Assembly (NCBI GenBank): GCA_964596395.1
Contig: CAZQSY010000002.1
Span: 34,339-98,338 of the forward strand
Direction: 5' to 3'
DNA length: 64,000 bases
From: an uncultured Candidatus Saccharibacteria bacterium
GTDB taxonomy: Bacteria > Patescibacteriota > Minisyncoccia > Phycocordibacterales > UBA9973
Of this stretch, positions 6,118-42,319 are shown piece by piece (within the stretch, counting starts at the first letter, position 1; every line of letters starts with the position of its first letter). Under the pieces are notes generated by a model that was given only the letters and a program-made list of their open reading frames with translations, did no database searches and was not told the DNA's origin. The position numbers and the translations under genes were made by a program.

Positions 6118-6639
6118 CTAGAACTGTCGCCCTAATATATTTTTCGAGTTTCTGGGATTAAACAAAATTTCGCTATCTTTTAGCAAGTAAACCTTCTTAA
6201 TATCCAACTTCAGCATGTTCCCCCAACACACATCACAACACCACCAATGTCCCCACAAATATAAATCAACGTTTTTTTCCGAAAACCCATCCTTGATTAA
6301 CTTCTCGGTTGCGCGGTATTCGGCGTGACTTTTCTTATTGGCGCATCCGGGACACATCCAATATTTTTCACCCGTAGGTATGTGTAATAAGTGTCTTATG
6401 CAGTATTTTTTATGTATATTGATAAAAAGTTTGTTAGATAAAGGGTTTCTGTTTGAGGCAGTAACCAAAATCTGACCGTCGTGCACTAACGCAACTCCAG
6501 TAGGCTGTTGCTGGTCGTTAGAAAATTTAGCCTCTTCTCTGGCTCGAGCCATGAAATTATTTTCAATGTCAACACAAGAAACGCTACACCCTTCCGGTAG
6601 ATAAGGATATTTTATATTTCTGGCCTGCGTGTTTCCCAT
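6118..6639 (-). CDS. CMP/dCMP deaminase-family zinc-binding protein (atypical)
   Basis: VALVHDGQILVTASNRNP ... HAE ... CCDVC resembles the dCMP deaminase core; extra Cys pairs (CPGC, CSVSC); true start may be the internal MARAREEA. Confidence 0.5.
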   Translation of the reverse strand: MGNTQARNIKYPYLPEGCSVSCVDIENNFMARAREEAKFSNDQQQPTGVALVHDGQILVTASNRNPLSNKLFINIHKKYCIRHLLHIPTGEKYWMCPGCANKKSHAEYRATEKLIKDGFSEKNVDLYLWGHWWCCDVCWGNMLKLDIKKVYLLKDSEILFNPRNSKNILGRQF

Positions 6640-6656
6640 GCGATATAATATACGCT

Positions 6657-7505
6657 ATGACCACCTTTGACACAATCTATCAGAACATTATTGGGAAAAT
6701 AATGAGAGAAGGCGTGGAGGAGCTTAACGAGCGTACGGGGCACAAGATAAAAATTCTGCCGGGCGTAAATTTTCAAATCGATGTCGAGAAGGATGGCTTC
6801 CCTATCCTAACCTTGCGTAAAAATCCGATAAAATCTCCCATCGCTGAGCAAGTTTGGTTTTTGACTGGAGAAAAAAATACTAATTTTTTAAGAAAATATA
6901 CAAAAATGTGGGACGAGTTTACCGAGGCAGATGGAACTATAACTTCAGCTTACGGATACCGTTGGAGACATCATTTCGGCAGAGACCAAATTGACCAACT
7001 TATAAAACACCTTACCGAAGAACCTCATTCCAGACAGGGAGTAGTGATAACCTGGGACGCATCAGATGACGGATTATATGGCAAAGGATTGAAAGCAACT
7101 TACAAAAAAAACGCGCCGTGTCCTTTTGCTTTTACCGCAAACATAATCGGCGGCCGTCTTTGTTTACACAACATAGTGCGGTCTAACGATATGATGCTGG
7201 GCTGCCCTTTTGATACATTTGGTTTCTGCTTGCTCATGTATGCTCTGGCACAAAAGCTTGAAGTGCGCCCCGGAATATACACGCACACGATTTCTAACGC
7301 GCACATTTATGATACACACTATGAAGGAGCAAGGGAACTGTTACGCAGAACAAACTCACATGAAAATATTTTCCCGGTACTTCCAAAAAATATTTACGAT
7401 AGAGCTTTTCATAAAGATGAAACATTGGTAGAGGAAATTTATCAATCGTTTGCGCCTTATTTCAAGCCAAACGAACCTATTACCGGTCTTGATATAATAA
7501 AATAA
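6657..7505 (+). CDS. thymidylate synthase (ThyA)-family protein with an atypical active site (possibly dCMP-specific)
   Basis: 282 aa; aligns by eye to ThyA over its length (WFL.G..N, WDE, RSxD, catalytic Cys in APCP); PCH is replaced by PCP and the conserved PFNIASYALL by PFDTFGFCLL. Confidence 0.85.
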   Translation: MTTFDTIYQNIIGKIMREGVEELNERTGHKIKILPGVNFQIDVEKDGFPILTLRKNPIKSPIAEQVWFLTGEKNTNFLRKYTKMWDEFTEADGTITSAYGYRWRHHFGRDQIDQLIKHLTEEPHSRQGVVITWDASDDGLYGKGLKATYKKNAPCPFAFTANIIGGRLCLHNIVRSNDMMLGCPFDTFGFCLLMYALAQKLEVRPGIYTHTISNAHIYDTHYEGARELLRRTNSHENIFPVLPKNIYDRAFHKDETLVEEIYQSFAPYFKPNEPITGLDIIK

Positions 7506-8002
7506 TGATTTCTATCATTGCCGCTATCGGGAAAAATAACGAACTTGGGAAAGATAACACTCTGCCTTGGCGCCTGCCGGCGGATATGAAACACTTCAAA
7601 GAAATCACCTCAGGACACGCGGTAGTAATGGGACAGAAGACCTTTGAATCCATCGGTTCGCCGCTCGCCGGCAGGCGCAATATTGTGATGTCAAAAGACC
7701 CTTCATACGATACTCCCGGGACAGAGGTAGCGCATTCGCTAGAAGAACTTGAAAAAATTTTGAAAAACACTGTGCCGCTTGAAGAAGAAGTTTTTATCAT
7801 TGGTGGTGGGCAGATATACAAGCTCATACTAGAGAAAGCAGACCGGCTTTACATCACGCATGTGCTTGAATCTTTCCCCGAAGCGGACACTTTTTTCCCA
7901 GAGATAAATTCGGCTATCTGGAAAGAGTCCTCCCGTGAAGAACACGAGCCGGACGACAAAAATCCGCATCGTTATGCTTTTTCGGTGTACGAGAGAATTT
8001 AA
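7505..8002 (+). CDS. folA: dihydrofolate reductase
   Basis: MISIIAAIGKNNELGKDNTLPWRLPADMKHFK is the classic DHFR N-terminus; start overlaps the upstream stop (ATAATGA). Confidence 0.9.
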   Translation: MISIIAAIGKNNELGKDNTLPWRLPADMKHFKEITSGHAVVMGQKTFESIGSPLAGRRNIVMSKDPSYDTPGTEVAHSLEELEKILKNTVPLEEEVFIIGGGQIYKLILEKADRLYITHVLESFPEADTFFPEINSAIWKESSREEHEPDDKNPHRYAFSVYERI

Positions 8003-8328
8003 GGGTCTTCGGGTGTTCTGACTCTTACAAAAATATCTTTCCCTTCGGGTGTCTTTTCTTTCCTGTATTTTCTTTTTTTATTAATCTCGATTTTCCTAGT
8101 TACTTCTTTCTCTAGGTCAAATCCAAAAATCTCGCATATGCCGAGCAGAAAAATGGCGACATCTGCAAGCTCCTCCGCCACACCATCTTCTCCGCGATTA
8201 TGTTTCTTGAACGCTTCAGAAAGTTCTTCGTGAGCGCGGCAAAATTCTTGGGCGATATCGGTCGTGTTAAAACCTTTTTCTATTTTATTCCGCATTACCT
8301 CCTTTTGCAGTTGCTTCAGGTTTACCAT
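7999..8328 (-). CDS. MazG-like nucleoside triphosphate pyrophosphohydrolase
   Basis: 109 aa; EELSEA...EELADVAIFLL is the MazG/NTP-PPase EExxE/D core. Confidence 0.65.
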   Translation of the reverse strand: MVNLKQLQKEVMRNKIEKGFNTTDIAQEFCRAHEELSEAFKKHNRGEDGVAEELADVAIFLLGICEIFGFDLEKEVTRKIEINKKRKYRKEKTPEGKDIFVRVRTPEDP

Positions 8329-8329
8329 T

Positions 8330-8716
8330 TTATTTTTTGCAAATAATTTTTTTAATTCCTAAGCTATTGGCCATCTTTGCGCACGCTTCGCAAGGCGCAA
8401 CTTCACAATACATTGTGGCACCATTCAAAGAAATATCAGAATTTAATGCTTGCTTCATAGCATTATGTTCGGAATGAATTGTCCTAGCGCAATAACTACC
8501 AACCTTTCCATCATGCCCGACATCACTGCAGTGCGGTAATCCAGAAGCTGAACCCAGATATCCAGTAGAGAGAATTCTGTTGTCTCGGGTTATAACACAA
8601 CCCCTACCGCCTCGGTCGCAAGTAGCGCGCAAACTCACCGCATCAACTATATCCAAAAAATATTCATCCCAGGACGGTCTCTTGTATTTTTCAGATTTTC
8701 CGGCGAGTTTCTTCAT
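8330..8716 (-). CDS. deoxycytidylate (dCMP) deaminase, ComEB-like
   Basis: WDEYFL...HSEHNAM...APCEACAKM zinc-binding motifs of the cytidine/dCMP deaminase fold. Confidence 0.8.
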   Translation of the reverse strand: MKKLAGKSEKYKRPSWDEYFLDIVDAVSLRATCDRGGRGCVITRDNRILSTGYLGSASGLPHCSDVGHDGKVGSYCARTIHSEHNAMKQALNSDISLNGATMYCEVAPCEACAKMANSLGIKKIICKK

Positions 8717-21731: not shown

Positions 21732-23435
21732 TTACAAAAACTCCCCTTGATAACATTTTTCGCAGTAAACAATCTCCGGTCTGTCGGGTGAAAAAGCGGT
21801 ATTTATTTCCGCCTGGCACTTGGCGCATCTTCTCCTCCACAATTTTGGCGGATTCAAGCGGGCAAACCGGGCGTTCTCCCGGCATTTCGGACATTCGCGA
21901 GGCGCGGGAAGCCCTAGTTTCCGCAATAGGTCAAGCTCGCCTTTGGTAACCTTGTACCCCCTCTTGCAGTTGGCGCACTCTATAACCTCGTTCAAAATAC
22001 CATCCTTCGTTTGTTCAATCGTGTTAGGCAACGAACCGGCCCCCATTGTTGTCTTGTAAACCGGCTCTGGCCGGTCATCCCAAGCGTACCCTCCGGCAAG
22101 CGCTTCTTCTTTAGTTTTTGGTAAAAAACGCATGGCGTTTGATTTGTTGTAGGCGAACCTGGAAAATTCCAGCGGGAAAAATTCTCCGTAATAAAATTCC
22201 CGGCCAAGCTTATCTGTATACGGATTTTTCTTCATATCTTCAATAATTTGCGCTTTCAATTTTTCATATTCTTCTTTCGAATATTGCTTGTTTAAAATGC
22301 AGTATGATTTTCTCTTTAAATTCACACAGCCGAAATTATTTTTCCCGGCGATGTTCCAAATGCAATACTGCAAATTTAAGCAGTCCGGAAAACAATAAGA
22401 GGAAAACATGACATTATTAACATTTTCCCCAACATGCACGCTCTCGTAAACTAGCGTCGCATTATTGCCCCAAACAGAATAATCAAAACAATCTTTCGCT
22501 GGCGGCACAGTCACAAATTGCGTCCATTTGCAATTTTCTACACTGTCGCATAAATAAACATTTTTTGAATTCTTAGAGGTAAACACGTATTCGCCGGTAA
22601 CATCCAGGTTAAGGGTATGCCCTGTATATACCCGGTACGGCTTGGTAAGCCATAAATCAAAGGCCTGTTTTTTAAATTTCTCAAGTCCTGCAAAAGATTT
22701 TAAATTCAATTCCTCCAACTTTTGGAAATACTCTTCTTTGGTGTATTTGATATTAAAAATACAGTAGGATTCTCCGCGAAGATTCACACAACCGACACAG
22801 TTTCTACAATTGAAACAACTTCTTGAAAACCAAACATCCACGCATGATTCGCATCTCTCCGAAAAAAACGTGCGATAACACTTATACAAACCGAATGACC
22901 CGTAACATAGTTCCGAATCCCGTACACTTAAACAATCCATACTGTACTTAACTCCATTCAACATGGAAGAGTAAAAAACGTTTTCGCAAAAATCTGCCCC
23001 AATAACCATATAACAATCTTTGCACCATGCAACGCCGCTTGTGTAAGTTGAATTTTTGAGGCTTGTGTACAAACTTTCCACCCCGACGTATGGAGTTTTT
23101 AAAGAAAGCTCCTTTACCTGATCAAAAAAAGGCCTCGAAGGGTCGTACTCGGTAGCATACTCGGTGCCATCCCACGAATCACCCCACCAACATTTCGGAC
23201 AGTAAACCGCTACTTTATCTTCGGGGGAATACATGGATAAAGTTTTTTCTCCGCACAAGTTACATGTACGCCAAAAGAGATAATACATATTCGCGAAAGA
23301 AAATCGTCGATACATCCGGCACTCTGGGCACCACGTCGGCGGCGGGACATTCATTTTTTGGTAGAAAGAAAAATCCTCAGATTCAATTACGAATTCTTTT
23401 TTACAGTTCTGGCAAATCTTAGTTTCGTTTTCCAT
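21732..23435 (-). CDS. cysteine-rich protein, paralog A (567 aa) with N- and C-terminal CxxC...CPxCR zinc-ribbon domains and a Cys-ladder core
   Basis: about 50 Cys; N-terminus KICQNCKK..FYQKMNVPPPTWCPECR..RTCNLCG..YCPKCWW; C-terminus CANCKR..PAPRECPKCR..RRCAKCQ..YCEKCY; internal CxxCxxCxxCVNL...YCI.N..Y.KEEY repeats. Confidence 0.8.
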   Translation of the reverse strand: MENETKICQNCKKEFVIESEDFSFYQKMNVPPPTWCPECRMYRRFSFANMYYLFWRTCNLCGEKTLSMYSPEDKVAVYCPKCWWGDSWDGTEYATEYDPSRPFFDQVKELSLKTPYVGVESLYTSLKNSTYTSGVAWCKDCYMVIGADFCENVFYSSMLNGVKYSMDCLSVRDSELCYGSFGLYKCYRTFFSERCESCVDVWFSRSCFNCRNCVGCVNLRGESYCIFNIKYTKEEYFQKLEELNLKSFAGLEKFKKQAFDLWLTKPYRVYTGHTLNLDVTGEYVFTSKNSKNVYLCDSVENCKWTQFVTVPPAKDCFDYSVWGNNATLVYESVHVGENVNNVMFSSYCFPDCLNLQYCIWNIAGKNNFGCVNLKRKSYCILNKQYSKEEYEKLKAQIIEDMKKNPYTDKLGREFYYGEFFPLEFSRFAYNKSNAMRFLPKTKEEALAGGYAWDDRPEPVYKTTMGAGSLPNTIEQTKDGILNEVIECANCKRGYKVTKGELDLLRKLGLPAPRECPKCRENARFARLNPPKLWRRRCAKCQAEINTAFSPDRPEIVYCEKCYQGEFL

Positions 23436-23436
23436 T

Positions 23437-25107
23437 TTAATAAATTTCCTGCTGGTAGCACCTCTCGCAATAGATTATATCAGGCAAATCTGGAGAATAC
23501 GCCGTTTCAAATTCATTCTGACACCCCTCTTTCATGCATTTTCGATGCCAAAGTTTGTTTGGCCCGCGATTTTTCATTCTTCTTTCATTTCTGCAATCAG
23601 GGCACAGCCTGGGCAACGGAATGCTTAATTTTTTATAAAAAAGAAACTCATTCTGAATGATGCGGTAATTTTTTGAACAGGCGATACAAACAAAAACTTC
23701 CTTAGACGCGTCAAAACCAATATCTTCAATTCTCTCTGGGATTTCCTCCCACTTTTTTATTTCCTTGCCATAAGTGCCGCGGGCGGTGTCTTCCCATTTA
23801 AAACCTTGTGACAAAGCTTCCTCTTTCGTAAGCGGGAATTCCTCCATCGCGGTAGTTTCGTTGTAGCCGAAAAGCATCGCCTCTTTCGGGAAAAATTCGC
23901 CGTATATTCCTTCATTTTTTAGGCCGGTAATAATTTCCTCCCTAATTTTTTCATATTCATCTTTGCTATATTGCTTGTTCAAAATACAATAATTCCCCTT
24001 CTTCAGAGCCATACAGCCGAAAAGATTTTGTCCATTCGGGCAGTTAAAGGAATATTCCGCAAAATTTGAACCCCAGCAATTGTGGCAGCAAATGCAATTA
24101 GACGCCTGAATGCCGGTATTGGTTGAATTGTAAATTCTCTCGGCGGTGCGCCCGGCCGTGTGGCAATCCACGCAGTCCCGCGCTTCGCGCCATACATGAG
24201 ACGAGTAAGCGCAATCCTCGGCATCGTAGGAATGGAAGCAGGAGCGATTATTTTTTACATTCACTTCATAATTACCCGTCGAGTTCGTAGACATGTAAAT
24301 CTCGGCATATTTTCTGGGAAATTTTTGAGCGAACTTTTTAAATTCTTTTCTGAAATTTTCCACTCCTTCGTAAGTATCCAGCTTGTAGTTTTTCAGCTTT
24401 TCTGCGTATTCTTCTTTATTGTATTCAACATTCCAAATGCAGTTGGATTTATTGCGCAAATTGACGCAACCCAGACAATTCACACACCCGCGGCAATTTA
24501 AAAGAAAGGAACTGTCGGTACAGCTATAACAGCTTTTGCAATATTTTAGACCGTAGGAATCATGGCAATCATCCGCCTCGTAAGAAAGCTCTACCTGGTG
24601 GGTGTAAGAGACGTCCACACAATCCTTGGTCTTCTGAATCCAATAACAGTGAACGCAATTCTCGTTGTTGGAAGACTCCACTATCATGTAGCAATTCCGG
24701 CAGTCGGCCACGTAATTCACGTACTGGCAGTCAACATTCCGCATGCCGACCAGCGCCGGCTTTGGAACTTTTTTGTAAAGTTCTCCAACTTGTTCAAAGA
24801 AGGGCTTGCTTTTGTCGTAAGAAAATCCGAATGACATCGGGTCCCACTGGTCGCTCCACCAGCACGGCACGCAATACACTGGCGTTTCTTTATTCGGCGA
24901 CCATATGGTAATCATGCTCTCTCCGCACAGGTCGCAATTCCGCTTGTAAAAATTCCTCTCGTTGCGGAAGATATGCCTTAACTGCGCCCGGCAATCCGGG
25001 CACAAGCGGGGTGCCTGCACGCCCATTTTTTCGTAATACTTAAAATCCTCCAAACCAATCGAAAAATCATTCTGGCAATTTTTACATTTTCTCGTTTCGT
25101 ATGTCAT
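23437..25107 (-). CDS. cysteine-rich protein, paralog B (556 aa)
   Basis: same architecture as paralog A; 1-bp gap from A. Confidence 0.8.
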   Translation of the reverse strand: MTYETRKCKNCQNDFSIGLEDFKYYEKMGVQAPRLCPDCRAQLRHIFRNERNFYKRNCDLCGESMITIWSPNKETPVYCVPCWWSDQWDPMSFGFSYDKSKPFFEQVGELYKKVPKPALVGMRNVDCQYVNYVADCRNCYMIVESSNNENCVHCYWIQKTKDCVDVSYTHQVELSYEADDCHDSYGLKYCKSCYSCTDSSFLLNCRGCVNCLGCVNLRNKSNCIWNVEYNKEEYAEKLKNYKLDTYEGVENFRKEFKKFAQKFPRKYAEIYMSTNSTGNYEVNVKNNRSCFHSYDAEDCAYSSHVWREARDCVDCHTAGRTAERIYNSTNTGIQASNCICCHNCWGSNFAEYSFNCPNGQNLFGCMALKKGNYCILNKQYSKDEYEKIREEIITGLKNEGIYGEFFPKEAMLFGYNETTAMEEFPLTKEEALSQGFKWEDTARGTYGKEIKKWEEIPERIEDIGFDASKEVFVCIACSKNYRIIQNEFLFYKKLSIPLPRLCPDCRNERRMKNRGPNKLWHRKCMKEGCQNEFETAYSPDLPDIIYCERCYQQEIY

Positions 25108-25160
25108 TTTTCATTTGTCAATAAACCTTGCGATAGCAGAAAATATTGACATTTGTATCT

Positions 25161-26906
25161 TTAATAAACTTCTTTCTGATAACATTCCTTACAGAAAATT
25201 TTCTCTGGTCTCTCGGGAGCATACATCGTTTCAAATTTATTTTGACACTTGTCTGCGTGGCCGTGATTTTTTAAATCGCACATGCATTCTCTTTGGTAAA
25301 AAGAAAACGGATTGGTCCATCTCAGCCTGTCGTAGTATCGGCAATTCGGGCATTTTCTCGGGAGAGGCAGGTTCATTTGCCGATAAAAAGAGAGCTCATC
25401 GGGCAGAATCCTAAAGGCGGAAACGCACAACGTTTTCGTATTCCCGTCGCCTGGACATTTTATGGTCTCTTCACAAATGTTATCCGATATATCTTCTATA
25501 CTATCAGGGATTTCTTCCGCACTTAATGTCGGCTCGTAATACTTCCTGTCTATATCTTTCCATTTGCTTCCAAAGGCCTTAATTTCTTCTTCAGAGATTC
25601 GCAATTCTTCATACGCTAAAGATTCATTGTACGCAAATGGAGAAAAAGCAGGTGGAAAATATTCTCCAAATCCGTATTTTTTCCCAGTAACATCAATATA
25701 AGGCGTCTCTTCCATGTGTCTTTTTATCTTCGCTACCAGCGCTTCATAATCCTCTTTCGTGTACTGCTTGTTCAAAACACAATATTGCTTTTTATCCAAG
25801 CCGACGCAGCCAAAACAATCCGCGCACCCTTTGCAATTGTCGCAATAAAACAAGTTCCGGCTTCCCCGGCCGCAGCTAAAACAAAAAATAACCCTGTTTC
25901 CTCCCCGACCGCTAATGACAGTTTCGTAGCATTCCTCAAGTTTACCCGGGAAAACAAGGTCTCGCGAATCTTTCACTACGTTTCCGCCGAGAAATATATC
26001 TTGGACGTTCTCCGAGTTAACCACAAAGTAGCACCGGCGCGCGGATTTGGAATTCTCTACAAAATCGCCGGAGGAATCTATGGAATTTTTTATGTTTGCA
26101 CAGCGGTGAACGGCCGACTTGTATACTTCAGCAAAAATTTCTTTGGCTTCGGTTTGTCCTGAAAAAATATTCAGCCTGAGCGCGGCCAGAGCATCCTTAT
26201 ACCCTTCTCGCGTAAGCTGTCTATTTTTAAAGACATAGCTTTTATTGCGAAGATTTGACGAGAGACAGCAATTTACGCAATTTGAACAATCAAACAAAAA
26301 ATGTGATTCAACGCATTGGTCAGAAGCAATCAAGAAAGAAGAATTATAGTTCTGGCTTGCCTTTACTAACTCGTATCCCCGATCATTATTTCTAAGTATT
26401 AAAGAATCAAGGCAGTTCTTGCTGTCAAAAACGAAACGCGAATATTTAACATTCTCAGACCGAAGAACACTGAAAGACAAGTAAACCTCTTTGCTGGTAT
26501 AACAATAATTTGCATATTCGCAACCGGCGCCGTTCCTTTCGTTCTGGTCCATGGCTCGATGCGGAACTTTTTCCTTAAGTTCGCGGAATTGCAAGAAAAA
26601 ATTTTTTGAGAAATCGTATTCTCTGCCGTAATCTCTGCCGTCCCAATCGTCGCCGAGGTGGCATTTCACGCACCATATGGCAAACGGGGATTCTGGCGCG
26701 TACATTGAAACTACGGGTTTGCCGCACTTTCCGCAGTTTCTCTTGTAAAGCGAACGCTCATTTACAAAACACATCTTGCGCAAGAATCGGCAGCGCGGGC
26801 ACCAGGTCGGCGGTGGGACGCCCATTTTTTGGTAAAAAGAAAAATCTTCCGGCTCAATCGTGAAGTCTTTTTTACAGTTTACGCAGATTTTTGTTTCGGC
26901 CTGCAC
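25161..26906 (-). CDS. cysteine-rich protein, paralog C (581 aa)
   Basis: same architecture; first CxxC of the C-terminal ribbon is degenerate. Confidence 0.8.
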   Translation of the reverse strand: MQAETKICVNCKKDFTIEPEDFSFYQKMGVPPPTWCPRCRFLRKMCFVNERSLYKRNCGKCGKPVVSMYAPESPFAIWCVKCHLGDDWDGRDYGREYDFSKNFFLQFRELKEKVPHRAMDQNERNGAGCEYANYCYTSKEVYLSFSVLRSENVKYSRFVFDSKNCLDSLILRNNDRGYELVKASQNYNSSFLIASDQCVESHFLFDCSNCVNCCLSSNLRNKSYVFKNRQLTREGYKDALAALRLNIFSGQTEAKEIFAEVYKSAVHRCANIKNSIDSSGDFVENSKSARRCYFVVNSENVQDIFLGGNVVKDSRDLVFPGKLEECYETVISGRGGNRVIFCFSCGRGSRNLFYCDNCKGCADCFGCVGLDKKQYCVLNKQYTKEDYEALVAKIKRHMEETPYIDVTGKKYGFGEYFPPAFSPFAYNESLAYEELRISEEEIKAFGSKWKDIDRKYYEPTLSAEEIPDSIEDISDNICEETIKCPGDGNTKTLCVSAFRILPDELSFYRQMNLPLPRKCPNCRYYDRLRWTNPFSFYQRECMCDLKNHGHADKCQNKFETMYAPERPEKIFCKECYQKEVY

Positions 26907-34118: not shown

Positions 34119-34898
34119 ATGGTTCGTAAAACCTATAAAATTGACCTGAAGAACAAGGCGGAGGAACTAAGGAGAAATGGTTGTAGCTACAAGCAAATAT
34201 ACAACAGGTTAAAAATACCGAAGAGTACTTTATCCACTTGGTTCGGCTCTAAATATCCAGGTGTGTTTGACCGGAAAAAGCAGCTGGAGCACCTGGCTCG
34301 AGTAAGACTAATATCACTTAAAAGAAGAAAGGAGAAGAAAAATTTAGAACAATCAGAACTGGAAAGAAAAGTAGCCAGCGAAATAAGATATTACCCAACA
34401 CGAAATATAGGATTTTTAAAATCGGTGCTGTCTGCCTTGTACTGGGCAGAAGGAGGCAAGTATCGCGGAAGCCCGGTTGTTTTCACCAATACTGATCCAA
34501 AACTCGCAAAATTATTTATAACCTTACTAAGAAAATGCTATAGCGTAGACGAGAAAAAACTCAGAATACGCTTGCACTTGCATCATTATCATTCTGAGGA
34601 AAAAAGTAAAAGGTTCTGGTCAAGGTTACTTGATGTGCCCTTAAGTCAGTTTGGCAAAATTTACATAAAGAAAAGAAGTAACTCAAGAAAATTTAGAGAA
34701 AATTTTATGGGAATATGTTTTATAAAATATTATGATAATATGCTTCAGAAAGAAATAATGGTCCTGGCAAACCAATTATCTGAGAAAATAACATGCCCCC
34801 GTAGTTCAATGGATAGAACACGACTTTGCGGAAGTCGTGATGCAGGTTCGATTCCTGCCGGGAGCACCACAATAAAGCTAGAAACAGCAGAGTTTTAG
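34119..34898 (+). CDS. HTH-containing homing-endonuclease-like protein (possible LAGLIDADG-type); the ORF reads through the downstream tRNA-Arg
   Basis: N-terminal HTH (CSYKQIYNRLKIPKSTLSTW); LSALYWAEGGKY...VVFTNTD resembles a single LAGLIDADG motif; no in-frame stop before the tRNA gene. Confidence 0.35.
   Translation: MVRKTYKIDLKNKAEELRRNGCSYKQIYNRLKIPKSTLSTWFGSKYPGVFDRKKQLEHLARVRLISLKRRKEKKNLEQSELERKVASEIRYYPTRNIGFLKSVLSALYWAEGGKYRGSPVVFTNTDPKLAKLFITLLRKCYSVDEKKLRIRLHLHHYHSEEKSKRFWSRLLDVPLSQFGKIYIKKRSNSRKFRENFMGICFIKYYDNMLQKEIMVLANQLSEKITCPRSSMDRTRLCGSRDAGSIPAGSTTIKLETAEF
34794..34868 (+). tRNA. tRNA-Arg (GCG), one acceptor-stem mismatch
   Basis: GCCCCCGTAGTTCAATGGATAGAAC..., anticodon loop TTGCGGA, encoded CCA. 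Confidence 0.65.
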
Positions 34899-36047: not shown

Positions 36048-38489
36048 ATGAACAAATTTATGAATAAAACAAAAAAATCGTTAGTGAGTTTGATGTTAGG
36101 CGTTTTGGTCGTTACCGGCCTTTTCGGCGTTTCAAACGCTGGAACTGCTGAAGCAGCGACAAGCTCAGTAAATTCTACCGGCATGAGTTCCCTCACCTGC
36201 GACAGCGTAAAGTTTTGGGGCTATATCAACACCGGCTCGGCTTCAAGCACATACCCGGTAAAGGCTTGGTTTGAATATGGCACGAACGAAAATGAAGTGC
36301 TTTATGGTTCAGCGAACAATATTAAAACTCCTCAACCGCCTTTCGGACCTTACACTTCGGCTTTTCAAAATATAAGAGTGGAACAGCCAGTAACCGGCCT
36401 TACTCCGCAAACCACTTACCACATGAACCTAGTGGCAAGTATGCGCATTAACGGTACTTGGTACGACGTCAGAGGAAATTATGTAGATACCTTCACCACC
36501 CCCGCCTGCCCGGTTACTGCTAAATACACCGTCACTTCTTCGGCGACCGTGGGCGGATTTATTAGCCCGAACGGAGCGCAGACGGTAAACGAAGGAAAAA
36601 TTTTGAGCTTTTACGCTTCTCCGAATAAGGGATACTCCGGCCCGGTTTTTGGCGGAACCTGCGGAGGAAATTCGAGCGGAAACAATTACACCACCAAACC
36701 GATAACTAAGGATTGTTCGGTAACGGCCACCTTCACCAAGGCGCCGGCCGTAACTTATACCCTTTCGGTAAATAAAATCGGCAAAGGATTCGTCAACGGA
36801 AGCGGAATCAATTGCGGCGGCGCTTGCCAAATCACCAAGAATGCGGGCGAGACCGTAAGTTTGTCAGCTTCTCCAGATAACGGATACACTTTCTCGGGCT
36901 GGTCGGGCGCGTGCTCTGGCACCGGCTCTTGCTCTGTCACCATGAACAGCAACAAATCGGTAACGGCGACCTTTAATGTTTTAAAACCTAATGCCACCTT
37001 GACCGTTTACCCTGAGAATGTTTCTTACAACGGCAATGCGGCACTCACTTGGAATTCAAAGAACGCGACCTCCTGCCAAGGCATCGGCTTTGATACAGCC
37101 GGCGCTGTCTCTGGAAAGAAAGTTCTCGCCAATCTTACGGCTACTAAGACATATAAAGTAACCTGCACGGGTGAGGGTGGCAGCGCTTCGGCTGAAGCGA
37201 TGGTAACCGTGGGAAACCCGGCCAACCCGAGCGTTGATTTCTACGCTACCCCGAACCCGGTTGATTACGGAAAGAGCGCGACCCTAAGCTGGTCTTCAAA
37301 GAATGCCACCGTCTGCACCGCTTTCGGCGCATGGTCTGGCAAGAAAGGAATTTCAGGCACGGCTTCTACCGGCGCGCTGACCTACACTAAAACCTACACT
37401 ATAAAGTGCGAAGGAAATTACGGAACCAACCCGGCTGTGAAAACGGTAAGGGTAGAAGTAAATCCTGAAATTATAATCCTGAAGCCGACGGTCTCTTTGA
37501 CTGCTTTCCCTGAAAGCATTCAGTATGGCGGATACTCTGCGCTTAAGTGGACTTCAAAGAACGCCGATTCTTGCACGAGCAACGATTTCGCCACCGGCGG
37601 AGCCGTGAACGGCTCTAAGGTAGTTTCCCCTTCTTCGACCGAGACCTACACCATCACCTGCACGGGCGAGGGCGGCAGCGCAGAAGACAGCGCCACCATT
37701 ACTGTGGGCGCCCCGTCTCATCCGGCGGTCTCTTTCTCGGCCAATCCTTATAAAATTTACTCCGGCGAATCCTCTACGCTGGCCTGGTCTTCAAGTAAGG
37801 CAAAATACTGCGTAGCAGGAGGCGCGTGGGCTGGTAAGAAAGGAATTTCTGGCTCGGCTTCTACTGGAGAGCTCTACAAAGACAGCACTTATTCAATAGT
37901 TTGCTACGGCGCAGACGGCACTACACCGGCCCGGGCAGAACTTACAGTTCGCGTGATAGAAAAACCGGAACCGCCGAAAGCTCTCCCGAAAGTAGACCTT
38001 AGGGTAAACGGCGTAAACGGACCGGTGAGCATCCCGCATATAAACGAGGGTGCTACTCTGACCTGGACTTCTGAGAACGCCGACCGATGCGAGACATTAA
38101 ACGGAGCCAACGGTTGGCAGAACCAGAGGAATTGGAAGACAGAAGGAGAATTCCAGACCGGCTCATTGCAGAGCGGAAAGACCTTCAGGATAATCTGCCA
38201 CAACAGCGCCGGCTCGGCTACCGACACGGTAAGAATCATAGTTGAAGATAAAATCTGCGCCCCGACTGCCACCTTAAACGCCACCAAGAGAAGCGAGCAG
38301 GACGGCGGAGGATACATATTGAGATGGTCTTCGACTTACGCTGACTCTTGCAAAGCGGATTGGACCAACAGCACCGCTCCAGAAGGCAAGAAATCCGTGC
38401 ACCCCGACAAGACAACTACTTACAAAATAACTTGCACCGGCCCGGGAGGCACCGTCACTGCCTACACCACGGTGAATCCGGCGAATTAA
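36048..38489 (+). CDS. large secreted repeat protein (813 aa) with InlB-B-repeat-like and Ig-like Cys-pair domains
   Basis: signal peptide; repeated modules of about 100 aa L.W.S.NA..C...G.W.G.K...G...TG.L..TKTY.I.C.G; YTLSV..GKGFV.GSGINCGG.C...GETVSL.A.P..GYTFSGWSGAC...C.V.M...KSVTATF matches the Listeria/Bacteroides (InlB B) repeat. Confidence 0.85.
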   Translation: MNKFMNKTKKSLVSLMLGVLVVTGLFGVSNAGTAEAATSSVNSTGMSSLTCDSVKFWGYINTGSASSTYPVKAWFEYGTNENEVLYGSANNIKTPQPPFGPYTSAFQNIRVEQPVTGLTPQTTYHMNLVASMRINGTWYDVRGNYVDTFTTPACPVTAKYTVTSSATVGGFISPNGAQTVNEGKILSFYASPNKGYSGPVFGGTCGGNSSGNNYTTKPITKDCSVTATFTKAPAVTYTLSVNKIGKGFVNGSGINCGGACQITKNAGETVSLSASPDNGYTFSGWSGACSGTGSCSVTMNSNKSVTATFNVLKPNATLTVYPENVSYNGNAALTWNSKNATSCQGIGFDTAGAVSGKKVLANLTATKTYKVTCTGEGGSASAEAMVTVGNPANPSVDFYATPNPVDYGKSATLSWSSKNATVCTAFGAWSGKKGISGTASTGALTYTKTYTIKCEGNYGTNPAVKTVRVEVNPEIIILKPTVSLTAFPESIQYGGYSALKWTSKNADSCTSNDFATGGAVNGSKVVSPSSTETYTITCTGEGGSAEDSATITVGAPSHPAVSFSANPYKIYSGESSTLAWSSSKAKYCVAGGAWAGKKGISGSASTGELYKDSTYSIVCYGADGTTPARAELTVRVIEKPEPPKALPKVDLRVNGVNGPVSIPHINEGATLTWTSENADRCETLNGANGWQNQRNWKTEGEFQTGSLQSGKTFRIICHNSAGSATDTVRIIVEDKICAPTATLNATKRSEQDGGGYILRWSSTYADSCKADWTNSTAPEGKKSVHPDKTTTYKITCTGPGGTVTAYTTVNPAN

Positions 38490-38521
38490 CATCACCCGAT
38501 TATTAATTATTAATTAAAATT

Positions 38522-41500
38522 ATGAAAATCAGCGCAACAATAAAAGTAGGGGTCATCGGTCTGGCTATCGTCGCGGGTGTCTCGTTCGCCAAAACGGCAG
38601 ACGCTACCACCAACTGCTACTCGAACTGCCTGCCGAGCCCGACGGTTTCTATATCGGCCAAGCCGGTATACATAAAGTACAAAGAGTCCTCGGTCATAAC
38701 CTGGTCTTCGCGAAACGCCACCCGCTGTACCGCCATCGGCGGAATCAACGGATGGGCGAAAGAAAGACCGACCTCGGGAACCTTTAATACCGGAAGTTTG
38801 ACCAGCTCAAAGTCATACACTATCACCTGCTACAACGGGTCAAGGTCTGCGACCAAATCAGTGAGAGTGTTTGTCTCGGGCAACACTAACGATGACGATG
38901 ATGACAATGACGACAATGATGATGACGATGATATCTGTCTTCCGACGGTAAACCTAACCGCCGACAGAACTACAATAAACGCGGGAGAAAGCGTGGTCTT
39001 GAAGTGGACTTCAAAAGACGCGAAATCCTGCAGCGCCACCTGGACGGAAAGCAAAGCGACTTCGGGAACCAAAACGGTGTCTCCGAACAAAACGGTCACC
39101 TACTCTATATCCTGCACCGGTGAAGGCGGCAAAGAAAACGACAGTGTAAAAATAATCGTGAAGAACACGGAACCACCGGTTGAGAATCCTTCGGTAGAAC
39201 TTTCTGCCGATGATTCAAGCGTGCCTTACAACGGTTCTACTACACTAAGATGGGAATCAGAAAACGCCACTTCTTGTACTGCGAGCGGCGGAGCGAACGG
39301 ATGGCTGGGGTCTAAGGCCTTAGACGGTTCTTTCGCAACCGGAGATTTAAAGAGCACAAAGACATACACCATCACTTGCTACGGTAATGGAAAGTCAGCC
39401 AGTGATTCGGTGACGGTGTCGGTGGGAGATAAACCCATTGAATTGCCTACGGTCAACATAACAGCCGACGAAACCGAAATTTCTTACAACACAGGAACTA
39501 TTCTGCGCTGGACTTCGGAAAACGCGACTTCGTGCTACGCGAGCGGTGGATGGAGCGGTTCTAAAAATACAAATGGCTCCGCTTCTACCGGCAATTTAAT
39601 TTCTACTAAAACATACAAAATTACCTGCACCAATGAAGACGGCGACGCCACTGATTCAGTAACGGTATCGGTGGGCAATCAGCCGCCTATACCTTCTCCG
39701 AGCGTAGAAATCAGCGCTGAAGATGATAGCGTGCCTTACGACGGTTCTACCACAATCACCTGGGAATCAGAGGACGCGACCTCGTGCTACGCGAGCGGCG
39801 CTTGGTCGGGGTCAAAGGGCCTTAATGGTTCTTTCCCAACTGGCAGCTTAAAGAGCACTAAAACATACAAGATAACCTGTCATAACGGCAACAAGTCAGC
39901 CGAGGATTCGGTAACGGTATACGTCGGCAATAAACCCCCCGTTGAACTTCCTTCGGTAGAACTTTCTGCCGATGATTCAAGCGTGCCTTACAACGGTTCT
40001 ACTACACTAAGATGGGAATCAGAAAACGCCACTTCTTGTACTGCGAGCGGCGGAGCGAACGGATGGCTGGGGTCTAAGGCCTTAGACGGTTCTTTCGCAA
40101 CCGGAGATTTAAAGAGCACAAAGACATACACCATCACTTGCTACGGTAATGGAAAGTCAGCCAGTGATTCGGTGACGGTGTCGGTGGGAGATAAACCCGA
40201 AACACCCACGAGACCAACCGCGCGGCTTTCTATAACTCCGACCACAGTAAAAAGGGGCGGACACGCGGTGCTTACCTGGTATTCGACAAACACTACTTCC
40301 TGCGAGGCATCTTGGCTCCCGAACTCTTCAACTTCGGGTTCCAAAACTGTTTTCCCTGAAGAAAACACTACCTACACTATTATCTGCACCGGTCCGGGCG
40401 GAGATGTGACTGAATCGGCAGAGGTAAGCGTAAAGGACTCTACTACCCCGCCCCAGGAAGAAATCTACGTTGAAATCGACGCAGATGAAAGCGAAATATC
40501 TGAAGGCGAATCAACCTACATAAATTGGTATTCGGAAAACGCGACTTCCTGCGCTGCAAGCGGCGGAACGAGCGGATGGGCAGGATACAGAGATACTTCC
40601 GGCAGTTTCTACACCGGCGACCTGTCAAGCACGAAGACATATTCAATCAGATGCTCAAACGGAAGCAGACAGTCAAGCGCTTCGGTGACCGTATACGTCG
40701 ATGAAGACAGTAACAACGGAGGCGACGAAGAACCGAGCGTCAGTACCAGGTCAGCCACGGATATAGAAGACGACCGAGCAACCCTAAACGGCTTCGTTGA
40801 TTCAAACGACGGTGGAGACGTTGAGGCATGGTTTGAGTGGGGCGAAGACGAAGATATGGAAGATACTACTTCGCGCGTGAGTTACGGAAATACTTCGGGT
40901 ACGGATTTTGATTACGAATTGGACGGCCTAGATGAAGACACTACCTATTACTTCCGCGCGGTTGCCGAGAATGAAGACGGCGACAAGGTGTACGGCAGTA
41001 TGAAATCGTTCACCACCGATGAAAACGGGGGCGGCGGAAGCGGTGATGAGCCAAACGTCACCACTTACTCGGCTGAAGATGTCGACGATGAATCAGCCAT
41101 GCTTTCAGGGTATGTAGATACCAACGGCGAGAAGACCAGGGTATGGTTCGAATGGGGCGAGAGAAGCGGCGACCTCTACGAGGAAACCGACAAATCAAGC
41201 TACAGCTCGAGTTCGCGTAACTTTGACGAAACGATTTACGACCTTGAACCCGACACCACCTATTACTTCCGCGCCATGGCGGAAAACCAGGACGGAGACA
41301 TAGACCGCGGGAATGTGCGTTCTTTTAGAACCGATGAAAACGGCAACCGTTTCCGCGACAACGAATGCGATTACGGAGAATGCGCACCGACAGCTGTAAC
41401 CACTCTGGTTACCAATGTGGGCCAGTCGAGCGCCCGCTTGAACGGACTCGGGTTGTCTAGCGACTACTCTTCAATGAGCGGACACTTTGAATGGGGAACC

Positions 41501-42319
41501 ACGCCTGCTCTCGGCTTCACTACAGTGCACAAAGGAATCGGAAGTGGCGGGTCAAACACGTTCTACGAAAGCTTGTTTAATCTGGTGCCGAACAGAATCT
41601 ATTACTATCGCGCGGTGGTTGAAAACGAATACGGCGAATCCGAAGGAGATATTCTCTCGTTCAAAACATTGTCGCCGCAGGTAGTAATTGACACCCCGGT
41701 AATTTATCGGAACACTACGGTAGTGACCACCTCTAGCCGAACTGGCACAGGCAGGCCTTCGCTGGTGTTCCTTTCCGTATCTGGAAATGATGAAATAATC
41801 CGCCGGGGCGAATATGTAGAGTACGCAATAGAATACAAGAATGTCTCTTCTGAAGACCTGAGAGATGTGGTATTGAGGGTTTCAATTCCCAAAGAACTTG
41901 AGTTCGTAGAGGCAAGCCGAGGATACTTCTCTGAAGAAAACAGCATGCTCGTCGTAAATATCGGAGACCTCTTCCCGCAGGAAGAAGGAAGCATTCTGAT
42001 AACGGTACGAGTGGATGAAAGCGCTGAAATCGGCAAAATAGTGGTGGTAACGGCAAACCTCGCTTACACCATTGACGACACCGATGTGCAAGAAGAAGTG
42101 TTCGCCTACTCAAAGAACACAGTAGAACTGGCAAGGAGGGTAAACATGGGCGGTTTGGCCTTTCTCTTCGGAGACGGCTTCCTGCCGGGTTCTCTCTTGG
42201 GTTGGCTCTTGCTTCTGCTTCTCATTGTCCTCATAATCCTTGCTTTGAGAAAAGCATTCAAGAGGGACGGCGAGAATAGAACCGTCATAAATACCGCGGA
42301 CCACACCGAGCATCATTAA
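38522..42319 (+). CDS. giant cell-surface protein (1265 aa): Ig-like repeats, poly-Asp tract, FN3-like repeats, DUF11/CARDB-like domain, C-terminal TM anchor
   Basis: signal peptide; at least 8 Ig-like Cys-pair repeats; WFEWG...TTYYFRA.AEN..G repeats; C-terminal LLGWLLLLLLIVLIILAL anchor. Confidence 0.85.
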   Translation: MKISATIKVGVIGLAIVAGVSFAKTADATTNCYSNCLPSPTVSISAKPVYIKYKESSVITWSSRNATRCTAIGGINGWAKERPTSGTFNTGSLTSSKSYTITCYNGSRSATKSVRVFVSGNTNDDDDDNDDNDDDDDICLPTVNLTADRTTINAGESVVLKWTSKDAKSCSATWTESKATSGTKTVSPNKTVTYSISCTGEGGKENDSVKIIVKNTEPPVENPSVELSADDSSVPYNGSTTLRWESENATSCTASGGANGWLGSKALDGSFATGDLKSTKTYTITCYGNGKSASDSVTVSVGDKPIELPTVNITADETEISYNTGTILRWTSENATSCYASGGWSGSKNTNGSASTGNLISTKTYKITCTNEDGDATDSVTVSVGNQPPIPSPSVEISAEDDSVPYDGSTTITWESEDATSCYASGAWSGSKGLNGSFPTGSLKSTKTYKITCHNGNKSAEDSVTVYVGNKPPVELPSVELSADDSSVPYNGSTTLRWESENATSCTASGGANGWLGSKALDGSFATGDLKSTKTYTITCYGNGKSASDSVTVSVGDKPETPTRPTARLSITPTTVKRGGHAVLTWYSTNTTSCEASWLPNSSTSGSKTVFPEENTTYTIICTGPGGDVTESAEVSVKDSTTPPQEEIYVEIDADESEISEGESTYINWYSENATSCAASGGTSGWAGYRDTSGSFYTGDLSSTKTYSIRCSNGSRQSSASVTVYVDEDSNNGGDEEPSVSTRSATDIEDDRATLNGFVDSNDGGDVEAWFEWGEDEDMEDTTSRVSYGNTSGTDFDYELDGLDEDTTYYFRAVAENEDGDKVYGSMKSFTTDENGGGGSGDEPNVTTYSAEDVDDESAMLSGYVDTNGEKTRVWFEWGERSGDLYEETDKSSYSSSSRNFDETIYDLEPDTTYYFRAMAENQDGDIDRGNVRSFRTDENGNRFRDNECDYGECAPTAVTTLVTNVGQSSARLNGLGLSSDYSSMSGHFEWGTTPALGFTTVHKGIGSGGSNTFYESLFNLVPNRIYYYRAVVENEYGESEGDILSFKTLSPQVVIDTPVIYRNTTVVTTSSRTGTGRPSLVFLSVSGNDEIIRRGEYVEYAIEYKNVSSEDLRDVVLRVSIPKELEFVEASRGYFSEENSMLVVNIGDLFPQEEGSILITVRVDESAEIGKIVVVTANLAYTIDDTDVQEEVFAYSKNTVELARRVNMGGLAFLFGDGFLPGSLLGWLLLLLLIVLIILALRKAFKRDGENRTVINTADHTEHH
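38891..38934 (+). repeat. imperfect (GAT/GAC)n codon repeat encoding a poly-Asp/Asn tract
   Basis: GATGACGATGATGACAATGACGACAATGATGATGACGATGAT. Confidence 0.8.
39178..39432 (+). repeat. intragenic direct repeat copy 1 (about 250 bp, identical to copy 2)
   Basis: CCTTCGGTAGAACTTTCTGCCGATGATTCAAGC...GGTGGGAGATAAACCC recurs without visible mismatches. Confidence 0.85.
39947..40201 (+). repeat. intragenic direct repeat copy 2
   Basis: identical by eye to 39178-39432; encodes one whole Ig-like module. Confidence 0.85.

Follow-up and report, generated by a model that had tools for sequence, protein, structure and literature searches.

To our knowledge, the textbook synthesis of thymidine monophosphate (dTMP) in cells always methylates deoxyuridine monophosphate (dUMP), by means of either ThyA or ThyX, and the reverse order, in which a deoxycytidine (dC) nucleotide is methylated and then deaminated, is documented only for phages that carry 5-methylcytosine (5mC) instead of cytosine in their DNA. 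The DNA analyzed here is a stretch of 64,000 nucleotides (the window) from an uncultured Candidatus Saccharibacteria bacterium (contig CAZQSY010000002.1, positions 34,339 to 98,338), which harbors an open reading frame (ORF) of the thymidylate synthase (TS) fold at 6657..7505 of the forward strand, denoted TS-D in the following. With a probability of roughly one half, TS-D is predicted to be a cellular deoxycytidine monophosphate (dCMP) C5-methyltransferase that gives dihydrofolate (DHF) as second product, the 5-methyl-dC nucleotide then being deaminated to a thymidine nucleotide. Residue positions are given in E. coli ThyA numbering unless stated otherwise.

N177D and N229D mutants of the E. 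coli and L. casei TS methylate dCMP, and the T4 enzyme gp42 uses the equivalent Asp, according to the literature reviewed in PMC8670742 and PMC5175136. Of the alignment columns in viral metagenome data, 177 and 147 are the two that distinguish homologs modifying cytosine most clearly from ordinary TS (PMC8670742). Furthermore, a hydrophobic residue at position 143 goes along with a methyl product and Asp or Glu at this position with a hydroxymethyl product, the exchange D169N leads to 5-hydroxy-dCMP (PMC13326640, 2026), and Ser167 and Arg126 mark deoxyribose substrates, as derived from work on MilA (PMC5175136). The TS homolog of Xanthomonas phage Xp12 and five of seven metaviromic Asp177 homologs make 5-methyldeoxycytidine (5mdC) in E. 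coli, where the promiscuous T4 dNMP kinase was co-expressed in the 5mdC-incorporation assay. Genes of such homologs are found together with those of PF00383 deaminases and PRA-PH pyrophosphohydrolases; one phage-type deaminase, which in the form tested needs triphosphates, turns 5mdCTP into dTTP, and the role proposed for it is the supply of thymidine nucleotides in phages where 5mC replaces cytosine in DNA (bioRxiv 10.1101/2024.12.05.627091).

Overall fold and active site of TS-D

The gene and its segments are located as follows.

6657..7505 (+): TS-D, predicted dCMP C5-methyltransferase, 282 amino acids (aa), PF00303, TS fold in the AlphaFold (AF2) model
7068..7109 (+): family-specific insertion DDGLYGKGLKATYK 5' of the catalytic Cys, seen as gaps in HMMER alignments, 9 aa longer than in E. 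coli TS
7110..7124 (+): active-site motif N152-A-P-C155-P156 (TS-D numbering), counterpart of E. coli L143-A-P-C146-H147
7179..7235 (+): block RSNDMMLGCPFDTFGFCLL, TS-D residues 175-193, holding D186
7467..7502 (+): conserved C-terminal tail P271...I275..G277-L278-x-I280 (TS-D numbering), its residues invariant or near-invariant, aligned to the E. coli PVAI C-terminus

The family PF00303 (Thymidylat_synt) matches TS-D residues 7-238 with an E-value of 9e-52 and 176 bits (cut-off 24.3), and the AF2 model, with a predicted local distance difference test score (pLDDT) of 90.3, superposes on full-length TS from E. coli, L. casei and E. faecalis with template modeling (TM) scores of 0.77-0.83 over 283-290 columns. 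A preliminary description of this DNA, made from the letters alone, had aligned the protein by eye with thymidylate synthase along its whole length and had noted the catalytic Cys, an Asp in the specificity column of E. coli N177 and a Pro in place of the His after the Cys. All of this is borne out here. The catalytic residue of TS-D is C155 (TGT, 7119-7121), followed by P156 at the position of E. coli H147, and in HMMER pairwise alignments with three solved TS the TS-D sequence APCP is placed opposite PCH, while the Asn of the TS motif pfNiasy faces D186 (codon GAT, 7212-7214); MAFFT alignments anchored on E. coli ThyA agree on these columns. The insertion preceding the Cys, formerly put at 15 aa, has to be corrected to nine additional residues in comparison with the TS of E. 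coli and other bacteria (HMMER gaps of three and six) and to five in comparison with phage Xp12. It is also the least confident stretch of the model (pLDDT 66-69).

Within the TS-D family there is no variation at N152, P154 and C155, and P156 is conserved to more than 90%. Further exchanges with respect to E. coli ThyA are V174 of TS-D (7176-7178), which is located directly 5' of the RSNDMMLGCPFDTFGFCLL block and stands in place of Gln165, as well as Phe for Trp83 and Gln for Arg127. Retained, on the other hand, are the catalytic Cys146 together with Glu58, Tyr94, Arg21, Arg126, Arg166, Ser167, Asp169, His207 and Tyr209.

The full-length TS fold, the C-terminal tail and the complete set of catalytic residues for reductive methylation would equally suit a functional dTMP synthase that acts on dUMP, alone or besides dCMP, with a protonated Asp mimicking the Asn and with deaminases, a dUTPase or Dcd feeding dUMP in the classical order, and it is as thymidylate synthase that public annotations name the protein. 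Such an enzyme is considered rather unlikely. TS-D marginally exceeds the cut-off of one NCBIfam full-length ThyA equivalog (TIGR03284, 113.5 versus 108.35 bits), but misses the other four of the five by a wide margin, scoring 145, 136, 118 and 115 bits where 325-405 are required. Moreover, its family has an invariant Asp where every characterized dUMP enzyme has Asn, and exchange of this Asn for Asp turns the E. coli and L. casei enzymes towards dCMP, according to literature cited in PMC8670742 and PMC13326640.

Relationship to phage-type and canonical homologs

An exhaustive phmmer search with TS-D was performed against 1.84 billion cluster representatives (50% identity). The nearest representatives, about 100 in number, all carry Asp177, most of them along with Pro147, Asn143, Phe83 and a residue other than Gln at position 165, and canonical proteins (N177, H147, L143, Q165, W83, R127) start only at about E 1e-32 in the ranking. 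Asn143 is present in 115 of 129 Asp-type representatives; in the canonical comparison set L143 is found in 19/19 and H147 in 17/19 sequences. Outside Patescibacteria the closest kin of TS-D are homologs of the phage Xp12 type and not canonical ThyA. In the phage genome collection TS-D finds its top matches in Xanthomonas phage Xp12 and relatives of this phage (E 1e-45 to 1e-50), and BLASTP aligns TS-D with the Xp12 TS homolog at 36% identity (E 1e-58). The coordinated changes at positions 147, 143, 165, 83 and 127 are common to the Xp12-type producers of 5mdC, which argues against a synthase acting on dUMP.

Two test hidden Markov models (HMMs), one of phage-type (Y176-D177) representatives and one of the closest canonical representatives, both without Patescibacteria sequences, yield 294 bits for TS-D with the phage D-type and 222 bits with the canonical ThyA model. 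This places TS-D 72 bits nearer to the phage type and likewise speaks against the dUMP enzyme. The most distant sequence in the HMM comparisons is T4 gp42 with 64-71 bits. In a neighbor-joining tree the canonical clade is set apart from a single clade holding the Asp177 proteins, TS-D included (bootstrap of the Asp clade 39/60).

One protein of the tree, P0255, clusters with canonical ThyA (W83, R127, Q165, F176) and yet combines Asp177 with Leu147; it may represent an independent N-to-D switch. Fusion proteins are also encountered in the Asp177 clade (P0147 at L089 8001-9973, P0198 and P0151). These are a deaminase-TS fusion of 433 aa, which adjoins a Dcd/dUTPase-like gene and ribonucleotide reductase and also occurs on a contig of >200 kb, a PRA-PH pyrophosphohydrolase-TS fusion of 424 aa, and a protein of 432 aa with an HNH endonuclease domain N-terminal to TS.

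Conservation and distribution of the Asp177 family

Residue conservation was counted in the best 120 of 1627 TS-D homologs (64-100% identity). A scan with one genome per GTDB species gave 328 genomes with a TS-D relative, and locus counts out of 80 refer to the best 80 of these species representatives; counts out of 87 refer to the TS genes in related loci, with neighbors sought within 10 kb of the gene.

Asp177 and Asn143 are each found in 120/120 homologs and Pro147 in 118/120, position 165 is occupied by Ile, Val, Leu or Met and never by Gln, and Glu58, Tyr94, Cys146, Arg166, Ser167, Arg126, Asp169, His207 and Tyr209 are invariant. Asp177 recurs in all 87 TS genes of the related loci, nearly all of which read N-x-P-C-P. 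From this near-invariance of Asp177, Pro147 and Asn143 it follows that the changes in TS-D are family traits, far beyond chance, and no one-off peculiarity of a single gene. CMP (ribose) specificity as in MilA was rejected, since Ser167 and Arg126 are retained throughout.

Every TS-D homolog carrying the name of a source organism comes from a Patescibacteria metagenome bin. Among the best 80 genomes, those named by lineage are of Nomurabacteria, Paceibacteria, Taylorbacteria or Parcubacteria type, all of them Patescibacteria, and many are mislabelled as Saccharibacteria. The window itself is an ordinary piece of bacterial chromosome with genes for EF-G, S7, S12, L11, NusG, SecE, UvrABC, PolA and RuvABC and seven tRNAs, and TS-D occupies the same chromosomal position in relatives. 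In view of these genes and the common site, the reading of the window as phage or prophage DNA was rejected. TS-D is thus a chromosomal member of the Asp177 family with the corresponding active-site signature and with conserved synteny.

A genuine phage contig (IMGVR_UViG_3300025858_000007, 5616-7250; L092 in our set), recognizable by YqaJ recombinase, RNA ligase, dUTPase and exonuclease genes, encodes an Asp177 TS of the Patescibacteria type with 56% identity to TS-D. A DEAM173-type deaminase (see below) lies directly 5' of this TS and a HAD protein 3' of it, and no DHFR was seen on the contig. The combination of Asp177 TS and DEAM173-type deaminase suggests that the module has been exchanged between Patescibacteria and their phages.

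Gene module and neighborhood

The genes surrounding TS-D are arranged as follows.

6118..6639 (-): DEAM173, divergent gene of the dCMP deaminase family, 173 aa, PF00383 at 2.5e-10, candidate 5-methyl-dC-nucleotide deaminase
6640..6656: divergent spacer, 17 bp, with -10-like boxes for DEAM173 and TS-D (consensus matches only)
7505..8002 (+): folA, dihydrofolate reductase (DHFR), PF00186 at 1e-58, its start overlapping the TS-D stop by 1 nt
7999..8328 (-): MazG-like all-alpha NTP pyrophosphohydrolase, 109 aa, PF12643 at 1e-5, phrog_3301 pyrophosphatase at 7e-13
8330..8716 (-): ComEB-like canonical dCMP deaminase, 128 aa, PF00383 at 4e-19, accessory

The stop codon of TS-D (TAA, 7503-7505) and the start codon of folA (ATG, 7505-7507) share a nucleotide within the string ATAATGA at 7502-7508, exactly the coupling that had been noticed at the outset, and a DHFR gene is found in 74 of the 80 loci. 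Coupling of thyA and folA is typical of canonical operons (PMC11974145) and to this extent is in favor of a dUMP-dependent synthase. At the same time the coupled DHFR and the retained C-terminal tail fit reductive methylation and not hydroxymethylation. The preliminary description had allowed for both reactions on dCMP, and Asp177 is indeed common to TS-D, T4 gp42 and RB69 gp48. Nevertheless, a hydroxymethylase or hydroxylase of this kind, synthesizing 5-hydroxymethyl-dCMP or 5-hydroxy-dCMP, is extremely improbable and was rejected: position 143 is Asn and neither Asp nor Glu, position 169 is an invariant Asp and not Asn, the tail is present, unlike in the 246-aa T4 enzyme, the distance to T4 gp42 is the largest of all sequences compared, and the coupled DHFR would be unneeded, because hydroxymethylation releases tetrahydrofolate (THF). 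What remains of the earlier proposal is its methylating part, which is supported by the Xp12 signature, the HMM scores, the deoxyribose markers Ser167 and Arg126 and the tail, with all computational tests performed in agreement.

On the other side of TS-D, DEAM173 adjoins the gene in 77/80 loci, and in a reverse look-up three distant members of its family (47-49% identity) were each found head-to-head with a TS gene and together with DHFR. The family comprises 983 proteins at E <= 0.001, and of the 120 listed all that bear a name are Patescibacteria; it has an invariant zinc site, H105-x-E107 and C135..C138, in addition to H76, C80, C96 and C99 (DEAM173 numbering). DEAM173 is without any NCBIfam match, and the best hit of a PDB sequence search, a dCMP deaminase, reaches just E 0.07. 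With the AF2 model, Foldseek places the dCMP deaminases of S. mutans, T4, S-TIM5 and PBCV-1 on top, at TM scores of only 0.45-0.5. Generic dCMP deaminases accept 5-methyl-dCMP, which makes the deamination step chemically plausible.

The MazG-like protein gives weak PDB matches to the pyrophosphatase 4qgp, to MazZ and to DCTPP1, and its gene is present in 57/80 loci. BLASTP finds no significant similarity between this protein and the PRA-PH domain of Xp12, so that the two have the superfamily alone in common. Its gene and folA are convergent with a 4-nt overlap (7999-8002), which leaves no space for a terminator. The ComEB-like deaminase is related to the Xp12 deaminase at 26% identity (E 2e-11). 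Its presence in the window is in favor of dUMP as the substrate of TS-D, but it occurs in only 9/80 loci and thus is no conserved part of the module. In the spacer between DEAM173 and TS-D a TATAAT is positioned 7 nt 5' of the TS-D ATG, and a promoter-like site is found on the minus strand at 6673..6645, both being matches to the consensus only. With the two starts merely 17 bp apart and a -10-like box on either strand, both mRNAs may be leaderless.

At distances of up to 10 kb from the TS gene, serine hydroxymethyltransferase (SHMT) is encoded in 34/87 loci, a dUTPase-like gene in 20/87 and thymidylate kinase in 18/87, and in many genomes these neighbors make up a cluster of thymidylate and one-carbon genes. 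SHMT and thymidylate kinase in the vicinity indicate dTMP as end product. No second thyA and no thyX were detected in the window by phmmer and a ThyX motif search, and no ThyX is encoded within +-10 kb of the TS-D gene in the 80 genome loci.

In more distant Patescibacteria (L095, 2226-6974, and the P0395 locus) genes for the MazG-like protein, DHFR, TS, deaminase, SHMT, thymidylate kinase and dUTPase form a single block. One Taylorbacteria genome additionally has a Dcd-like gene (dCTP deaminase/dUTPase fold) adjoining DHFR. In a Nomurabacteria genome (nzgw486, locus L004; 1433-2792, 10883-13198) an inserted gene for a 258-aa P-loop thymidylate-kinase-like protein separates the TS homolog from folA, an NT5C 5'-nucleotidase gene comes after the MazG-like gene, and a diversity-generating-retroelement pair (reverse transcriptase and bAvd) is located about 8 kb upstream.

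Proposed pathway

From the signature and the gene order described above we infer the substrate and product of TS-D, the substrate of DEAM173, the level at which deamination occurs (mono- or triphosphate) and the physiological role as follows. Cys155 of TS-D would attack C6 of dCMP, while Asp186 would form hydrogen bonds with cytosine N3/N4 and protonate it. The methylene group of 5,10-methylene-THF would be transferred and then reduced by the folate hydride, giving 5-methyl-dCMP and DHF, from which the coupled DHFR would regenerate THF. The MazG-like pyrophosphohydrolase probably yields dCMP from dCTP or cleans the triphosphate pool. DEAM173 would convert the 5-methyl-dC nucleotide, as mono- or triphosphate, into the thymidine nucleotide, and the thymidylate kinase neighboring the module in relatives would carry dTMP onward. 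The module would hence be the thymidylate pathway of the cell with the order of deamination and methylation reversed and with dUMP bypassed.

Several observations weigh against this pathway. The specificity of TS-D is deduced from residues and from homology to a tested enzyme of 36% identity, and the Patescibacteria subclade is the sister of the Xp12-like subclade in the neighbor-joining tree and not nested in it, the bootstrap of the entire Asp clade being moderate. Position 176 is Phe, Thr or His in the Patescibacteria subclade versus Tyr in the tested phage clade. A protonated Asp in the hydrophobic pocket that results from Q165I/V could in principle bind uracil. Between DEAM173 and the Xp12 deaminase no similarity was detectable, and DEAM173 has no match in 50,697 phage records; in view of this, of the marginal PDB match and of the modest TM scores, a preference of DEAM173 for 5-methyl substrates is not arguable from homology. 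The dUTPase-like genes, the single Dcd-like gene beside the cluster in one relative and the ComEB-like dCMP deaminase in the window are normally suppliers of dUMP, and the absence of thyX and of a second thyA refers to +-10 kb around the gene and to the 64-kb window. The alternative already raised in the preliminary description, a canonical but divergent ThyA fed with dUMP by deaminases, is weakened by the signature and the HMM scores and kept alive by the dUTPase or Dcd-like genes near the cluster in some relatives.

A different fate of the methylated product is conceivable as well. Xp12-like phages, in whose DNA 5mC fully replaces cytosine, have the same module, the characterized phage deaminase works on 5mdCTP and hence after phosphorylation, the MazG-like pyrophosphohydrolase could deplete dCTP, and one relative has the P-loop kinase-like gene between its TS-D homolog and folA. 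In this case 5-methyl-dCMP would be phosphorylated and incorporated, with genomic 5mC in place of much or all cytosine as in Xp12, serving as protection or self-mark, and no more than a fraction of the pool would be channelled to dTTP by the deaminase. We regard this as improbable. A dedicated dNMP kinase was not found in 79/80 loci, and in the assay in E. coli the T4 kinase was co-expressed; the kinase that does recur near the cluster is thymidylate kinase; and a gene resembling family-4 uracil-DNA glycosylase (UDG) is kept in the window. We know of no cellular organism with wholesale replacement of cytosine by 5mC. Base modification cannot be read from sequence, and the observed/expected CpG ratio of the window (1.27) is uninformative as a trace of 5mC.

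Extended from TS-D to its lineage, the methylate-then-deaminate order would constitute a third route to thymidylate in Paceibacteria, Nomurabacteria, Taylorbacteria and their relatives, which amount to 328 or more genomes at species level, leading from dCMP via 5-methyl-dCMP to the thymidine nucleotide by a lineage-specific deaminase and without a dUMP-dependent synthase, the Xp12-type module being its offshoot or its donor. This generalization is put forward tentatively, at a little less than even odds. The kind of enzyme and the module are already known from phages, and in the searchable literature we found neither a report of a conserved chromosomal module in bacteria nor an earlier description, for Patescibacteria, of the Asp177 signature or of a cellular methylate-then-deaminate route, the gene being handled there as an ordinary thyA. 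There is a substantial chance that the TS-D module represents an undescribed housekeeping route to thymidylate.

If this holds true, an essential step of DNA precursor synthesis runs differently in a major bacterial radiation, and the automatic annotation as thymidylate synthase and the metabolic reconstructions of these genomes are mechanistically wrong. Very small cells could then avoid dUMP and dUTP altogether. DEAM173 would become a candidate for a new 5-methylcytosine-nucleotide deaminase, belonging to an enzyme class that currently attracts biotechnological interest for methylation sequencing, and the module would offer a link, in evolutionary terms, from the housekeeping synthesis of thymidylate to the hypermodification of phage DNA.

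Other features of the window

At 43418-45551 genes for Fpg/MutM-like and family-4 UDG-like proteins were recognized by eye from their translations. The UDG-like gene implies that uracil repair is retained and bears weakly on the presence of ordinary cytosine in the DNA. Three tandem paralogous Cys-rich proteins (567, 556 and 554 aa), in which CxxC pairs are numerous, are encoded at 21732-26825 (-), and two very large secreted proteins of 813 and 1265 aa with repeats of about 90 aa and the recurring motif TWSS.NAT.C at 36048-42319 (+), the longer one also containing acidic low-complexity stretches. A 259-aa ORF at 34119-34898 (+) runs into tRNA-Arg(gcg) at 34795-34869, its last residues, about 30 in number, being translated tRNA. 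The true gene is therefore probably shorter at its 3' end, unless the ORF is part of a mobile element that integrated beside the tRNA.

Comparison with known systems

In order to relate TS-D to the described members of the superfamily, its signature and gene order are set against five reference systems. The CMP hydroxymethylases MilA and BcmA have the Asp at the specificity position in common with TS-D. MilA, however, combines it with Ala at position 167 and Lys at position 126, which account for its ribose preference, and with Asp143, where TS-D has Ser, Arg and Asn. The dCMP hydroxymethylase T4 gp42 (EC 2.1.2.8) resembles TS-D in Asp177, in a residue other than Gln at 165 and in the deoxyribose-specific Ser/Arg pair. 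Contrary to TS-D it carries Asp143 and a Thr after the Cys, comprises 246 aa without the C-terminal tail, does not produce DHF and lies much further away in sequence.

Canonical ThyA (EC 2.1.1.45) shares with TS-D the fold (TM about 0.8), the catalytic Cys, Glu58, Tyr94, Asp169, Arg21, Arg166, His207 and Tyr209, the tail and the coupling to folA. Differences of the TS-D family are the exchanges N177D, H147P, L143N, Q165V/I, W83F and R127Q/H, the 9-aa insertion and, for TS-D, scores under four of the five equivalog cut-offs. The phage module of the 5mC-selective deaminase (mSCD-B5; bioRxiv 10.1101/2024.12.05.627091) parallels the TS-D locus in that a D177-type TS homolog adjoins a PF00383 deaminase and a pyrophosphohydrolase, and in the role proposed, the formation of a thymidine nucleotide through deamination of the 5-methyl-dC nucleotide. 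Descriptions of it are limited to phage and metavirome contigs with modified DNA, and its deaminase is of another subfamily.

The closest match is the TS homolog of Xp12, which has deoxycytidylate C5-methyltransferase activity (EC 2.1.1.54), with the same N143-x-P-C146-P147, Ser167, Arg126, Asp169, Asp177, Phe83 and non-Gln residue at 165. The motif reads N-V-P-C-P in Xp12 and N-A-P-C-P in TS-D, and the insertion starts with DGL in both. Asn143, which is neither hydrophobic nor acidic, thus occurs in TS-D and in the verified Xp12 methylase alike. In Xp12 the PRA-PH-domain hydrolase, the TS homolog, the dCMP deaminase and DHFR are encoded by consecutive genes, and the Patescibacteria locus provides the same four functions. 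Unlike its phage counterpart, TS-D is cellular and chromosomal, and in hundreds of Patescibacteria species it holds a conserved place between operons for ribosomal proteins. Its subclade has Phe, Thr or His instead of Tyr at position 176 and mostly Gln or His at 127, its partner DEAM173 stems from a different, Patescibacteria-restricted branch of deaminases, and its role is likely the housekeeping supply of dTMP and not DNA hypermodification.

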